From Octopus vulgaris (Eukaryota): a stretch of 64,000 nucleotides of DNA. The notes under the pieces are model-generated. The model ran no database searches, was not told where the DNA came from, and worked only from the letters and a program-made list of their open reading frames with translations. A program made the translations under genes and the position numbers. Below, in pieces: positions 762 to 18,115 of this stretch. The stretch spans positions 86,986,001-87,050,000 of the forward strand of contig OX597820.1 in assembly GCA_951406725.2 (NCBI GenBank), in the 5' to 3' direction. Numbering within the stretch: the stretch's first letter is position 1; each line of letters begins with the position of its first letter.

Positions 762-803
762 CCTTTCAACTATAGGTACAACCAGCTAGCAAGCCATGCT
801 ACT

Positions 804-2672
804 TCAGATTTTTGTTGTTTTTTGAGAGAAGCTGATCGAAAGTGCGTGCGAAGCCGGCGTTTGTCGGTAAAAGAAACATTAGAAATGAAGAGCTACGCGG
901 AAGCGACAGCGGAAGACCCGGAAAAAGAGAAATTAAGAAACCTAACACCGAAATCGTTGAATTGGGACCCTGAATAGATGAAGAGATAAATGAGTAAAGT
1001 AGAAAGAGAAGCAACGAATGTCGGAGGAGAAAAAGAAAATGTTAAGGGATTCAACAATAGTATTCAGAACATTCTCCAACGAATCCAGGAGGATTGAAAT
1101 ATCACTTGAATTTCACACAGAAGCAATGGTAACGAACTGTATGGATAGAGTGGTTTTCATAAATAGAGGAAGCCAATACGGCACGGTAAATATTATATTT
1201 GAAAATGTGGCGGCGGCAAAGATGAACGACCAAGTGATAGAAGGAAATAGGTGGACTCTCATATCCGACAAACCAGGAAAAAGTTGGTGAAAATTATAGT
1301 TGGAAGAATCCCACCCATAATAGAGCCCGAATGGGTAATAGTGGGAATCTTCGGAGAGAATTTGAAGAGAGGAAATACGAAGTTGAACGTACTAACAGTG
1401 AGAAAAACACAATGTTTGAATTTTTGGGGTTATGAAATTGAAATTGCGCTATAACCTCAGAATACTATGAGAAAATACCGGAAACGGTAGAATTACCGAC
1501 TGGTGAAAAGTTGGATATTGTGCTGCAGGGAAGACTCCCAAAATGCTACTTGTGTGGCATGAGGGGGGGGGGGCATATGCGAAGGAAATAACAGTATACG
1601 GAAGTAGAGAAAAGGTTGGAAACAACGATGGAAGAAAAAGCAGCCGACGAAGAGAAGAAGGAGAACAATAATAGAACAAATATGGTGAAGAGCAGGAAGA
1701 GAGAACGTAAAAAGTCACCAACTTTAGAATAAACGAAAAAAAAAGGTAAAGGAATAGCAGAGAATATAACATATCAGAACGGTAACACTGAGAGGAACCA
1801 ACTATAGAAGAGATATTGAGAGTGATGGAACTGCAAAACGAAGAAGAAATATGGCGAGAAAATCTAGAGTTGTTTAAGCTCAAAGATAGAGAAGAACAGA
1901 TGGAAGAGAAGTATTTGAAAAAGTCACCAACTTTAGAAGAAACGGAAAAAGTAGAGGAATGGCAGAGAATATAACATATCAGAACGATAACACTGAGAGG
2001 AACCAACTATAGAAGGGATATTGAGAGTAATGGAGCTGCAAAACGAAGAAGAAATGTGGCGAGAAAATCTAAAGTTGTTTAAGCTCAAAGATAAAGAAGA
2101 ATAGATGGAAGAGATGTATTTGCAGCCGAGAGAAATTACAGATACACAAACGGAGGAAGATGTGAACGAAGCAGTAGACTCGAGAAGGAAAACAAGAAAA
2201 GAAAGAGAACGAGAGAAAGAAGAAATGTCGTATAAAAACGTAGACGGTAAGTATAATTACGAGTGTAATGCAACTAATGTTTAACAAAAAATGTGAATCG
2301 AACTGCAAATGAACTGAGAATTGAACTTGTGTTATTTGTTTTGTGAAATTGTAAAAGAAAAAAATGTAATGCTTGGAAAAAGCGATAAAATAGAAAAGGA
2401 AAATAGAAAGACTAATGTGAACAATTAATGATACATTTTATGCGATAATGATAAGAAGACCATCGTGGTTTCGCCTCACAGTGAGACCCGATGGTATTGA
2501 GAATTAATGTGAAAAAGTCACGGTTCGTCTCGCAGCTGGAGTGAGTCGAACCGTCTCATTCTCATTATTTGTTAATCATTCCACCAATAATACATCATTT
2601 GTTTTATGTTCTCGTTTGTCTTGTTATGTCCCCTCTATATAATCAGGCAATTGTGCCTATAATAAAGAGAAA
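804..2672 (+). mobile_element. ORF1-only (non-autonomous or internally deleted) L1/Tx1-like LINE with 16-bp TSD
   Basis: Direct repeat AGCAAGCCATGCTACT at 788-803 and 2673-2688. Frameshifted gag-like ORF from 1018 with a zinc-knuckle remnant GRLPKCYLCGMRG..H (about 1528-1590). Internal tandem duplication of about 209 bp (1710/1919). 3' hairpins and an AATAAA/A-rich end. No RT motifs seen. Confidence 0.75.
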
Positions 2673-2687
2673 AGCAAGCCATGCTAC

Positions 2688-2729
2688 TCCAGACTGATGA
2701 CGAGCAAGACTCAGAAACATGTCTCTGGA
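2688..2729 (+). ncRNA. Minimal type I hammerhead ribozyme motif
   Basis: UCCAGA-CUGAUGA-C GAG caaga CUC A-GAAAC AU GUC-UCUGGA: 6-bp stem I, intact core, palindromic ACAUGU stem III and GUC cleavage triplet. The first stem II pair is a C/A mismatch. Confidence 0.8.
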
Positions 2730-2875
2730 TGGGGGTGGTTATCTCCCCCTTGTAAACCTAAGGACACAGGAAATGTGTCAAGGCCGACAGGAAGCGTTGA
2801 TGCTTCCTAGGGCTAAATAGCAGTGGTGTGATTCCCTTTATGGGACTATCACGTTAAGTTGACAGCATACAACTG

Positions 2876-2879
<4 letters not shown>
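2730..2879 (+). repeat. Hairpin-rich short interspersed repeat downstream of the hammerhead
   Basis: Second copy, inverted, at 16472-16588. Four consecutive hairpins visible. Confidence 0.7.
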
Positions 2880-2963
<84 letters not shown>

Positions 2964-4543: not shown

Positions 4544-5475
4544 TTGGGTTGTCCGGAAAGTTCGTGCCGATTTTTAAAGGAAAGAAAAAGGTCAATAAAT
4601 ACTTGCCATTACATTTTTAATCAACCAAATATGAACCATTTTGTTGCTCAATGCGTCTCCATCTTTCCTTTAACTTGAAAATACCCTCTTCCCAGAATTG
4701 AGGTGGTTTCATGGCAAAGAATTCATCAAGGTATCTTTTTACGTCATCCAAGGAATTGAAATTTACCATTTACCATTAAGACTATTCTGCAGAGACCTGA
4801 ATAAGTGGAAATCCGAAGGAGCAATATCTGGTGAATATGAAGGGTTGGGTAACACATCCCAGCTGAGCTGCAGCAATTTTTGTCTGGTTCCCAAAGAAAC
4901 GTGCGGTATTGCATTATCATGTTGGAAAACAACACCCTTCCTGTTGGCCAATTCTGAACGTTTCTCTTGAATTGCTGCTTTTAACTCGTCCAGTTGTGTG
5001 CAGTATTTCTCAGAATTGTCTGGTTACTTAAGAGAAGCTCAGAGTACAGAATTCCTTTCCAATCTCTCCAGACACAAAGTAAGGCATTTTTAGGGTGAAG
5101 ACCCGCTTTTGGGGTGACTAAGGGTTGCTCATGTCGCTTACTCCAGGATCGCTTTCTCTGAACATTTCGGTAGATAATCCATTTCTCATCACCTGGCACA
5201 ATTTGCTTTAAAAAAGGCGCGTTTTCATTCCGTTTATAAAGCGAATCCCAGATGGAAATGCGATGCAAGAGATTCTTCTCATTCAACTCATGTGGTACCC
5301 AAACATCGTATCGATTCGTGTACCCAAGCTTTACCAGGTGCTCATGAACGACGGATTTTGATAGGTTGAGGCTTTCTGCCAATTCTCGGGTTGTGCAATG
5401 TGGGTTATTCTCAATTAATGACTTGATTTGGTCACCATCTGTAGTGGATGGTCTGTGTGATCGCTCTTTATCGAG
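4544..5475 (-). mobile_element. mariner (DD34D) transposon, 5'-truncated, frameshifted transposase
   Basis: Motifs WVPHEL, GDEKW, HDNAIPH and YSPDIAPSDFHLF. TIR TTGGGTTGTCCGGAAAGTTCGTGCCGATTT next to TA at 4542. Confidence 0.92.
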
Positions 5476-6639
5476 GAAAGGTGAGATGCTCTATCTCAGC
5501 GTATCTCCTTTCTTTCATTATATAGTCTGTAACGATTGCAGGCACCAGTGGAAAAAAGTCGTTCTGCAGTAATGTCATTCTAATGGGGTATGAAGAGGTA
5601 TTTACAGAAGGGATAATCTGAGAACAATAAGTAATGCATATATTCTCTAAAGTTTGGAAGTCAACCCGACAAAGATTTATACCATTATAAGGCCTTGAGT
5701 TTCACTGGTGGGGTCACTAGTGGTGTATGTTGCAGAGACCTCAATCAACAATGAAATCGTACTTAGACGTTTCCAAATTTTCGAGAACAAAGCAATGAGG
5801 AGAATCTTGGGGATCTGATAGTAAGACTGTGTAAGGTATCAAATAATTTGAGATCATTAAAGTTAGATATCGACGTGGGGCAAATGGGTAACATTAAAAA
5901 ATGTTCTACATATCCAGTCAGATAGAATATTATGGAAGATAGCTCAGTGGAAGTCAGTATGAATAAGACCAACTCTTACATGGCTGAGAACAATGAAGGA
6001 GAAAGACTGATGATGGACATGACAGAAGACAAGCATGTAGACTGGAACAGTTGGCGTGAAGGCTTGGAAGCTCTTTGTTGTATCGTACAGCAATAGAGGC
6101 GGTAATAGTTATAGCATATGACATTATCTGGCCCAGTTTTTCATGCACATACGTCAAAAGCCTATGGGACACAATACCAAATTTAACATTGCTTCATTCT
6201 TGTCTTTTGAACGCACGCACAGATAGGATCGGCGTGCTGATCTATGGGACGTATTGCTTGTTCTCTTAACACCTTTGAAACAGCGTATATTACTCGAAAT
6301 AAGGACGACTTAAATATTTCTAAGGTAACATTTCAATACTTTTGGTGTTGCTGTTATTGATATTTAATGTTCAATCTACAATGCTAAAGACTTATATAAC
6401 ATTAATTATCTCTGTATTCTACAATACTTCGAGCAAACTACGACACATATATAAATATACACATGCATATATATATGCGTATGTTTGTATATGTATATAT
6501 GCGTGCATATGGGTGTGCATATGTATATGCTTGCATATGGGTGTGAGCATGCACACAACACTTGCGTATATGTGTGTGCATGTGTGAGTATATGCATATA
6601 TAGCAGGCTGACAAATTCCACTTATAAGTTGTTAGTCAA

Positions 6640-15739: not shown

Positions 15740-16440
15740 ACGATATACCCTCCAGCCTTCATCATGTGTCTTGGGGAAATTTCAAACCTGGGTTCTCATT
15801 CCTCAGGTATTTTTCGATATTATTATTATTATTATTATTATTCAGGTCACTGCCTGGAAACGAACTCGGAATCATGGGGTTAGTAGTCCGCGCTCATAAC
15901 CACTACGTGGGCAATTATGGTGTGAATTTTAGGGCTTATAAATCTAATATTTTCCTATTCTTCCTTAATACCGCTTCCCATATGCTGCTCATATCTGCAC
16001 TCGGTCTGCTTAGGAGGTTGTTGTGTCTTAGCATATGTGCTGCTTTTAGTTTTCGTATTTTTCAGTGGTATTCTGTCTATTATTTTAACTTCCTTCCACA
16101 GAGGGAGCAGGTATCCATTTCTCCATATATGATCAGCTATACCTGATTTATCAATACTTCATCGTGTCACAGCTTTGCGATGTTCGTCTACCCTTATTTT
16201 GAGGGGCGGCATGTTTCGCCCTTGTATAACCTACCACAGCTGCATAGGATGGAATACACGCAGTTTTTGGTCATATTCTCTTCTATTGGTGGTTTTATTC
16301 GAAGGAGATATTTGCGAAGTGTTGTATTAGTCTTGAATACCGTCCTGATGTCAAATGTAAATAATGCTAATAATGTACATAATTCCTCATCTCTTAAATA
16401 TAGAACTGTATATGTATAGAAATATTAAATTTCTAAATAT
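15740..16440 (-). mobile_element. Penelope-like element 3' part: GIY-YIG endonuclease remnant plus terminal repeat
   Basis: Minus-strand reading FDIRTVFKTNTTLRKYLLRIKPPIEENMTKNCVYSILCSCGRLYKGETCRP/KIRVDEHRKAV...SGIADHIW, with frameshifts and a stop. The downstream non-coding part is shared with 43410-43750. Confidence 0.85.
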
Positions 16441-18115
16441 CTCAGAGAGATATAAGCAGTGGTGGTACGATAGAGCAGTTGTATACTGTTAACTTAACGT
16501 GACAGTCCCATAAAAGGAATCTCACCACCGCTATTTAGCCCTAGGAAGCATCAACGCTTCCTGTCGGCCTTGACACATTTCCTGTGTCTACATATTCTTT
16601 TATTCTTTTATTTGTTTCAATAATTTGACTGCGGCCACGCTGGAGCACCGCGTATAGTCGAGCAAATCGACACCCGGACATATTTTTTGTAAGGCTGCAT
16701 AGTCTGCGACTAAACCGGCACCCAACCAATCTTGTTTTGAAAAGTGGGGAATTTTGGGTCATTTGGGAAATGAAAAACAGAACCTGTGAAAAGTGGATGA
16801 ATTTAAATGTACCAAACAACGGCTTTCAAATAGTGTGTACAGATGCATATATGTACATTTACATATACACATACGAAAGAAAGACACTCACTTTAACTCT
16901 ATTGTGCTTGTAGTCTCTGACCTAACTTCAAATATTTATAGAGTAGCACTCGTGTTACACAGGCGTTTATCATAATAACTTAGATGTACGGTACTTTTAG
17001 TGTTTTTTCTCAAGCGTAAGTGTGACCCGGGCTTCTTGAATCTATAAATATTCGACAGACCTTGTGTTACCGCTAGCAGGCTGTATATCATGCACGTCTG
17101 TGACAATGAAATAGTGTCACTACCATGTTTTTCTCGTCATTTGAGAGAGCATGGAAGTGTAGTGTGGGGGGAAGAAGTCGCGGTTCTCTTGTTCAAGTAA
17201 CGTCGGCGTCTATTAGTCTTAGTTTTATCATATATATGTATGTCTTTGTTATAAGAAAGTCCAAGACAAGGAAGGTCTGCATATGTAATTTTTGCGCAAA
17301 ACATGCCATACTCGATAACGAACTGACAGGTCTGTTTTGATCCGGGGTATTAGTACCTGTTAGGGATCCAGTTATGGATTAGTTATCGTGTGAACTACCG
17401 TGAGTGAAGAACCATTAGTTCTCGTTAGAACTTCCTTCAGGTGCCTATGTAGTCACAAGTAGATATATACACCATCTTAATCCTCTCATCCTGTGCCCGA
17501 CAGAATATCGAGGAAATGACAACCATAACAAGAAAGAGCTGCACCAGCAGTTGACTGGTATGCATCTCCAGTTGAGCTGATTAAAATAATCTGAAATGAA
17601 GTGTCTAGCTTCGTGGCACAACGCATCGCCGAGGCCCATTGATCGAACTCACGACCTCACAATCATGAGCCCTACGCTCTAACCACTCGGCCACAATTTC
17701 TAACCATGAGTTTTTCAGCTGATCAAACAACTGGACCATCAAGAACATTGAATTAGCGTATAAATGGCCGAATATTCCACAGCCATGTCAACCTTTACAT
17801 GATTTTCCGAGCGGAAACAGCATGACGTTGTGAGAAGGCTGGACCATTGAATTACTGGTATGATGTAGCCGGCTGACGGGCTTCTACGCAGTTTCGATCC
17901 ACTCCATTTCACTCACACGCTGAGGATCGACCCCTGGCAATAGCAAAAACGCTTGAATTAGATGCCGCACAGTGGAATCGAACCATGGGCCTTGCAATTG
18001 AGGAGCAGGTTTTTTTAACCATGCACACTCATATATGTATATGTCATAGAAGTAGCAATTATTGACATGACTCACGGCATCACACGTTATGAAATATTGT
18101 TACCTCGGTCTAGAG

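Follow-up and report, generated by a model that had tools for sequence, protein, structure and literature searches.

The window, i.e. the whole 64-kb stretch of octopus DNA under analysis, contains a predicted hammerhead ribozyme that is preceded by a LINE derivative and followed by the body of a small repeat; a second, inverted copy of the repeat adjoins a Penelope-type fragment. The features are as follows (coordinates refer to the window; evidence in brackets).

779-808, plus strand: upstream retrozyme remnant, unit positions 335-363 (family alignment)
789-808, plus strand: upstream copy of the target-site duplication, stem I 5' strand (19 of 20 positions identical to 2674-2693)
809-2673, plus strand: ORF1-only non-autonomous LINE derivative, 1.87 kb (translations, genome matches, self-BLAST)
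2674-2693, plus strand: downstream copy of the duplication, comprising the stem I 5' strand and a UAC bulge (19 of 20 positions identical to 789-808)
2688-2729, plus strand: type I hammerhead (sequence, predicted fold, family comparison)
2730-2878, plus strand: retrozyme body with four hairpins, ending at the short fixed 3' end, unit ~209-214 (fold, family alignment)
2879-2960, plus strand: (TC)n(TA)n microsatellite that adjoins the 3' end and often flanks family insertions (sequence; same flank elsewhere)
About 15740-16360, minus strand: broken Penelope-type GIY-YIG fragment and terminal repeat with the remnant of a different hammerhead (adjoins the second retrozyme copy)
16417-16588, minus strand: another family copy that lacks the ribozyme, spanning unit positions 95-266 and ending at the long fixed 3' end (96.5% identical to the unit of L005)

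The LINE derivative comprises a gag-like ORF with a CCHC knuckle, interrupted by several frameshifts and stops, lacks an ORF2, harbours an internal duplication of ~200 bp and ends in a tail with a poly(A) signal; in its relatives, zf-CCHC is detected at E ~0.002, which falls short of the Pfam cut-off. Genome-wide, its 5' end gave 18 matches and its 3' end 41. Although the insert sits in the stem I strand, the 20-bp duplication leaves the ribozyme whole. Given this duplication and ~8 nt of additional retrozyme sequence upstream, the window copy appears to stem from direct insertion of LINE type into a retrozyme copy already short by 5' truncation. It is probably a decayed, inactive relic, since its ORF1 is broken, a tandem partner is missing and the distal stem I strand is deleted (~16 nt after position 2731). 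About 300-580 bp before the window start (L088:9319-9601), a second LINE tail, 96% like that of the window element, is joined to a hammerhead and truncated on both sides.

Two further features occur in the window. A 169-aa open frame at 4981-5490 (minus strand) is presumably a fragment of a mariner-type transposase, and a dispersed repeat of ~230 nt (D19), which we take to be SINE-like, is present in six copies (22438, 41995, 52899, 56730, 59815 and 60364).

The ribozyme and the retrozyme family

The initial annotation had described a CUGAUGA/GAAA core, a 6-bp stem I, a GUC triplet and a palindromic stem III, and all of these are in place: stem I is formed by TCCAGA (2688-2693) and TCTGGA (2724-2729), the catalytic core by CTGATGA (2694-2700) and GAAA (2714-2717), and the palindromic ACATGT of stem III (2717-2722) is followed by GTC, which sets the predicted cut at 2723/2724. 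Stem II pairs 2702-2704 with 2710-2712, closed by a CAAGA loop, above a C2701.A2713 mismatch. The bare core pattern is at chance level in the 64-kb window (three matches versus 1.1 expected, a value equally high in 14 of 100 shuffles); the hammerhead is taken as real because of its paired stems and its family copies, with 97 exact copies of a 30-mer genome-wide as opposed to none for the control. Rfam covariance models, envisaged earlier as a check, gave no match at the gathering score in the window, and no Rfam hammerhead at E<=5 in the related loci L002, L004 and L038. All four hairpins assigned to the body appear in the predicted fold, but only two exceed chance alone (z -4.7 and -4.9), the other two failing to do so singly; the entire stretch 2688-2879 folds with a z of -2.3.

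The designation "minimal" does not apply: with a short helix II of 3-4 bp and a helix I of 6 bp plus a distal extension, the ribozyme is canonical by the available text of PMC4209133, in which minimal hammerheads have a helix II of 7-8 bp, a helix I of 4-5 bp and no contact between loops 1 and 2. With the Penelope hammerheads treated there it shares the palindromic stem III, the predicted dimer and one additional nucleotide that separates A9 from the conserved G-C pair, but it differs in the size of helix II and lies outside the terminal repeat of a Penelope-like element (PLE) ORF. The initial annotation had also raised the possibility of a family U at position 2701, which would restore stem II. 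Among the 97 exact copies, 72 have C at this position, 24 have T and one has A, and related families have U.U, A-U or A.A at the pair; U is thus not the family state, and a stem II restored in this way is not supported. A basal C.A mismatch in stem II could impair catalysis, and the 24 T copies may reflect CpG decay or a sub-family.

A first-look search with the stretch yielded 2,333 candidates in the microsatellite-rich host genome of 2.8 Gb, and 40 of them were scored. Family sequence extends to both sides of 2688-2879 with a period of 354-355 nt; the unit, previously put at about 200 nt, thus measures 354 nt, and position 2878 is one of two fixed insertion ends. The tandem copies that had been called for were found as a 354-355-nt trimer (L092) and as dimers (L027 and L355/356), yet they are a minority, with two arrays among 30 ribozyme-anchored loci, and dimer partners are scarce because such arrays are rare. 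When the L005 unit is folded as a circle, it is predicted to pair with itself at a z of -8.6, and none of 100 shuffles is as low. The inverted body copy reported at 16472-16588 exists, but its true span is 16417-16588 and it is devoid of the ribozyme. The family is thus, as initially annotated, a non-coding, hammerhead-bearing retroelement, and comparison of its sequences supports its placement in the non-LTR retrozyme kind.

Several properties, as far as the available text of PMC7229834 describes them, are common to this family and the metazoan non-LTR retrozymes: the type I hammerhead, tandems, a predicted circle paired with itself and a non-coding unit (354 nt here, 350-390 nt in mussel), which lies within the 150-450 nt typical of such elements found in tandem. 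The axolotl hammerhead HHR_Amex1 has a palindromic stem III with a tetraloop, as in the octopus family, and HHR_Amex2 has U.U at the base of stem II, comparable to the basal mismatch seen here. In contrast to the retrozymes of that text, the octopus copies are mostly dispersed and 5'-truncated with two fixed 3' ends, and they host site-specific LINE insertions; LINE passengers are not mentioned in the part of PMC7229834 available. On its own, the ribozyme adds one more ordinary member to a class already known.

Covariation was assessed in 132 distinct hammerheads from several related families. Pairing in stems I and II was a condition of their selection and the pairing rates of these two stems are therefore inflated, whereas the interior of stem III is unfiltered. 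The first pair of stem II is C.A in 80, U-A in 21, U.U in 15, A-U in eight, A.A in five and another combination in three; the next pair is G-C in 121 of the 132. Changes in stems I and II between families are compensatory, and stem III is a perfect palindrome in 108 of the 132, represented by seven sequences of 6-10 nt, the related copies among them not being independent. Self-complementarity is held while the sequence changes, as a double hammerhead needs, which supports dimer cleavage on comparative grounds; stem covariation and retention of the palindrome argue for past selection on the ribozyme. Contigs assembled from runs guessed to be RNA cover the retrozyme family, and the LINE passenger thinly; such contigs are blind to level, ends and circles. 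A recent preprint reports that eight of nine predicted Xenopus retrozymes showed no cleavage. The hammerheads of a related family, B, that lie behind a passenger (L038, L041, L045-L054) have a GUA triplet and a 10-nt palindromic stem III, and could partly fold as a monomer.

Insertion anatomy of the retrozyme copies

The enzyme that moves animal retrozymes is an open question in the available texts of PMC7229834 and bioRxiv 10.64898/2026.07.22.740005, and the ends of the octopus copies bear on it. Among 30 ribozyme-anchored copies, the 3' ends fall at unit positions 205-220 in 16 and at 258-280 in nine, and the 5' ends are scattered from -353 to -2. Among 30 body-anchored copies, 28 reach 5' beyond the cut site and 12 carry an inverted 5' piece; a pile-up of 5' ends at the cut site, the sign of copying from a cleaved linear monomer, was seen in none of the 30. 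Since the copies pass straight through the cut site, their template would be uncut or re-ligated RNA. Inverted pairs, some of which had been chosen since prior matches hinted at inversion, consist of one short and one long arm in 11 of 12 cases; a dinucleotide microsatellite abuts seven of the nine pairs whose flanks were inspected, and only one of the two pairs with both arms scorable has arms that match each other best.

5' truncation, an inverted 5' copy, a one-sided tail and a microsatellite target are the properties described for PLE insertions (10.1101/2021.04.23.441226). The retrozyme exhibits all four in the same layout, differing in the length of the tail, which is ~55-60 nt as compared to the 30-40 nt described. 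We infer that a Penelope-like RT/endonuclease copies the retrozyme. The fixed ends, inverted arms and one-sided tail provide direct genomic evidence for an enzyme of the Penelope type, and they name the priming end. The available text of bioRxiv 10.64898/2026.07.22.740005 regards retrozymes as non-autonomous PLE derivatives, based on co-occurrence in vertebrates and pLTR homology, and thus also points to PLE machinery, for which the octopus insertion anatomy is independent evidence; unlike the retrozymes treated in that part of the preprint, the octopus family has no homologous pLTR that could be found and bears cargo of up to ~1.8 kb.

Two candidate partners were rejected, and neither yielded an autonomous PLE whose terminal repeat resembles the retrozyme. 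The Penelope GIY-YIG fragment of the window (considered at about 15960-16360) has its own, different ribozyme remnant, and its adjacency to the retrozyme does not recur and is apparently due to chance. A second, very abundant GIY-YIG family (L325-L354) showed no retrozyme-like ends in 30 loci. PLE-derived queries gave a single distant match in 60 loci. The L325-L354 family is young, with 14,950 first-look candidates, frequently occurs as inverted pairs and carries hammerhead-like pieces far apart in its 3' region.

LINEs at the ribozyme site

The insertion in the window is one of many at this site. Of the best 30 loci matching the 3' end of the LINE derivative, 25 run into a hammerhead core, three into the target strand and then another element, and two into neither; four of these loci are duplicates of one cluster on C17 and two are one and the same locus. 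A 23-nt tail motif has 91 exact matches genome-wide (control, 0). In the first 30 of them, a hammerhead scan is passed within <=60 nt by 16, compared to 33 of 5,000 random positions; of the remainder, six are degenerate or partial by eye, one retains the target strand only and seven have neither. ORF1 lies upstream in 26 of these 30 loci and ORF2 in none. The targeted retrozyme families include ones with differing stem I sequences. Target duplications measure ~14-21 bp and end at the border of stem I and core in the group of the window, or 8-18 nt further 5' in other groups; the downstream ribozyme stays whole because they end at or 5' of this border. In family A, insert-bearing copies are scattered among solo copies (18 versus 22 rows, 12 changes) and a single clade of insert-bearing copies is rejected (p-AU 9e-35); from this scatter, targeting occurred many times. 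L192, a short truncated insert with a duplication, represents the LINE route in action.

RT-bearing elements were found at the same junction in seven loci among 30 of the 66 rows of a junction search (two of the 66 being duplicates), and in two more, one of them full-length. Rows L233-L237, L242 and L244 were discarded as insertions, being retrozyme variants with an internal AATAAA, and L207 and L221 are apparent chance matches. The relatives of the partner ORF2 have an APE endonuclease-RT-zinc-finger layout and are accompanied by a CCHC ORF1, as judged by Pfam on a related family and by homologue domains; the best solved structural relative of the partner ORF2 is L1 ORF2p. The tail of the ORF1-only elements is identical to that of the RT-bearing L204/L238 in the last 13 nt and the junction, and otherwise no more than similar and T/G-rich. 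Based on architecture, we take the partner LINEs to be Tx1-like.

One target in >20% of flanks, accompanied by a duplication, defines target specificity in the Tx1 clade in the available text of PMC4494074, and the octopus elements show such a preference. The targets given there are Tx1D for Tx1, U2 for Keno, those of Kibi/Koshi, and Mariner-N4 for Tx1-Mar with SINEU-3; a satellite target listed in Figure 3 might or might not be a retrozyme. Shared with this clade, as far as it is described there, are the ORF2 layout, the CCHC ORF1, fixed sites in other mobile elements, tandem insertions that sandwich a duplication and non-autonomous partners with the same target. The octopus LINEs differ from the Tx1 elements of that text in that the target is a retroelement ribozyme in several diverged families, and in that the host re-mobilises the passenger.

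Among the ORF1-only elements, ORF1 frames of 436-483 aa are open. In 11 pairs, dN/dS is 0.05-0.21, some values being rough because dS exceeds 2 in several pairs, and two more pairs are saturated; by this sequence comparison, ORF1 is under purifying selection. HeT-A, HAL1 and Ag-Sponge, the ORF1-only non-autonomous LINEs in the available part of PMC5786205, likewise possess ORF1 alone and depend on the RT of a partner; distinct from these elements as presented there are the Tx1-like origin, the ribozyme target and the apparent second route of spread.

A young, intact LINE family (L146) was considered as a partner and rejected, as its tail is different and was never seen before a ribozyme. This abundant family (L143-L154, L155-L164; C4:93.33-93.36 Mb, C26:13.91-13.94 Mb and others) has many open ORF2 frames of 1,132 aa and 131 scored matches at 89-100%, often in tandem at ~5.26 kb. 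Its members are mixed with several ORF1-only families in long arrays, the junctions of which suggest insertion at one another's 5' ends. L145/L149, another EN-RT LINE, has a 3' end running into (TATC)n and possibly belongs to a microsatellite-targeting family.

Passengers of the retrozyme

If every copy had been inserted by the LINE route, a duplication would be predicted at the 5' break. Yet, 17 truncated passenger arms at 15 loci of the window's element family have none, apart from a doubtful 12-mer in L319, whereas full-length controls have it in three of three. At most truncated-passenger loci, at least 3 kb upstream is free of retrozyme; at L105 and L321, later insertions could mimic truncation. 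In eight inverted pairs, each arm includes passenger tail, ribozyme and body, and the junction between the two arms falls within passenger sequence. These composites end at the two fixed ends of the retrozyme, mostly in (TA)n or (TC)n and without poly(A). In family B, the sequences located behind the passenger group in a single clade and have variants in common (10 rows from eight loci on four chromosomes versus six solos; the tree is short, at 205 columns, with support of 94/97 and an unsettled bootstrap, and the pattern overlooked three additional linked loci), which indicates one founder insertion that was copied onward with its retrozyme flank, by the route of the retrozyme. The LINE thus probably spreads in two ways: by targeted insertion of its own, and as a hitch-hiker on the retrozyme. 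On C17, at 44.6, 67.3-69.2 and 79.7 Mb (L091, L093, L094), segmental duplications of a composite insertion, counted once, sit beside or inside a more distant ORF1 element.

A retrozyme with a dimer-cutting hammerhead that hosts an ORF1-only LINE, the passengers of which then spread by the retrozyme's route, is considered the probable explanation. For the type I hammerhead, efficient cutting is predicted in the dimer alone. Copying of the family starts from two fixed 3' ends, and 5' truncation, inverted arms and microsatellite targets are observed; a Penelope-like RT/endonuclease acting on uncut or re-circularised RNA is presumably responsible. The 14-21-bp duplications show that APE-RT LINEs and their ORF1-only partners enter the stem I strand or the sequence immediately before it, and the LINE ORF2 may mobilise the ORF1-only elements in trans. 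Passenger, ribozyme and retrozyme tail are then copied jointly by the retrozyme's route, as anatomy and phylogeny show, the enzyme again being putative. The likeliest template would be a passenger transcript that reads through a lone, poorly cutting ribozyme and thereby gains the priming end of the retrozyme.

The template is the sole point of difference from a scheme in which passengers travel on large RNA circles: a unit of ~2.2 kb would be cut out between two ribozymes, circularised and reverse transcribed by rolling circle. Retrozymes are abundant as circles in other animals in the available text of PMC7229834, and the full-length inserts L091, L311 and L324 are flanked on both sides by retrozyme sequences overlapping by 100-180 nt, which copying of a circle beyond a single round would produce; such overlaps would also arise if the LINE had entered an existing copy of more than one unit. 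The points at which family B passengers end (positions 13, 84 and 94) are close to the passenger's own 5' end, which favours a linear read-through template past the lone ribozyme and makes the circles somewhat doubtful. A single clade of downstream sequence is also expected from LINE-driven 3' transduction, a process established for L1, in which a weak poly(A) signal would be passed and ORF2 would copy the downstream retrozyme without any Penelope-type enzyme. This is improbable, given that the composites end at the fixed ends of the retrozyme, lack poly(A), lie in (TA)n/(TC)n, outside the LINE target and without its duplication, and form inverted, one-tailed pairs like those of passenger-free copies.

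Ordinary decay, i.e. independent targeted insertions followed by deletion, inversion or segmental duplication, with the ribozyme as a dead remnant, accounts plainly for the one C17 cluster, and copies diverged by ~5-15%, some of them interrupted, are in line with it. As a general explanation it is unlikely: family B composites on four chromosomes are homologous as far as the retrozyme ends and have unrelated flanks beyond them, 11 of 12 pairs follow the rule of a short and a long arm, and the covarying stems and preserved palindrome speak for past selection on the ribozyme. The original view of a self-standing element of ~200 nt, headed by a minimal Penelope-type hammerhead, agrees with the many copies that end at the position matching 2878, but is refuted by the tandem units, in which family sequence extends 5' beyond the ribozyme with a period of 354 nt. 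The helix sizes are canonical rather than minimal, and the element seems to start at the ribozyme in the window only because the LINE derivative was inserted there.

Searches of the text of open-access articles turned up no LINE that targets a hammerhead or travels on a retrozyme. New are the Penelope-type anatomy of the retrozyme and the truncated LINE passengers inside such insertions that have no duplication of their own, whereby one retroelement, a cargo of ~1.8 kb, is carried by the machinery of another class. Trans-mobilisation by Penelope-like enzymes becomes testable via a short cis-signal, which bears on circular-RNA-templated gene insertion. More tentatively, the octopus may harbour a LINE lineage with a two-enzyme life cycle that aims at the hammerhead because insertion at this site, where the target duplication restores the ribozyme, links it to Penelope-driven, possibly circular-RNA, amplification; this is a serious possibility short of an expectation. 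On this reading, the ribozyme, being dependent on a dimer, would switch between two outcomes, leaving lone read-through RNAs intact and excising unit-length RNAs from arrays; retrozymes would serve as natural vehicles for cargo of kilobase size, and insertion anatomy would allow their mobilisation by Penelope-like enzymes to be read directly.
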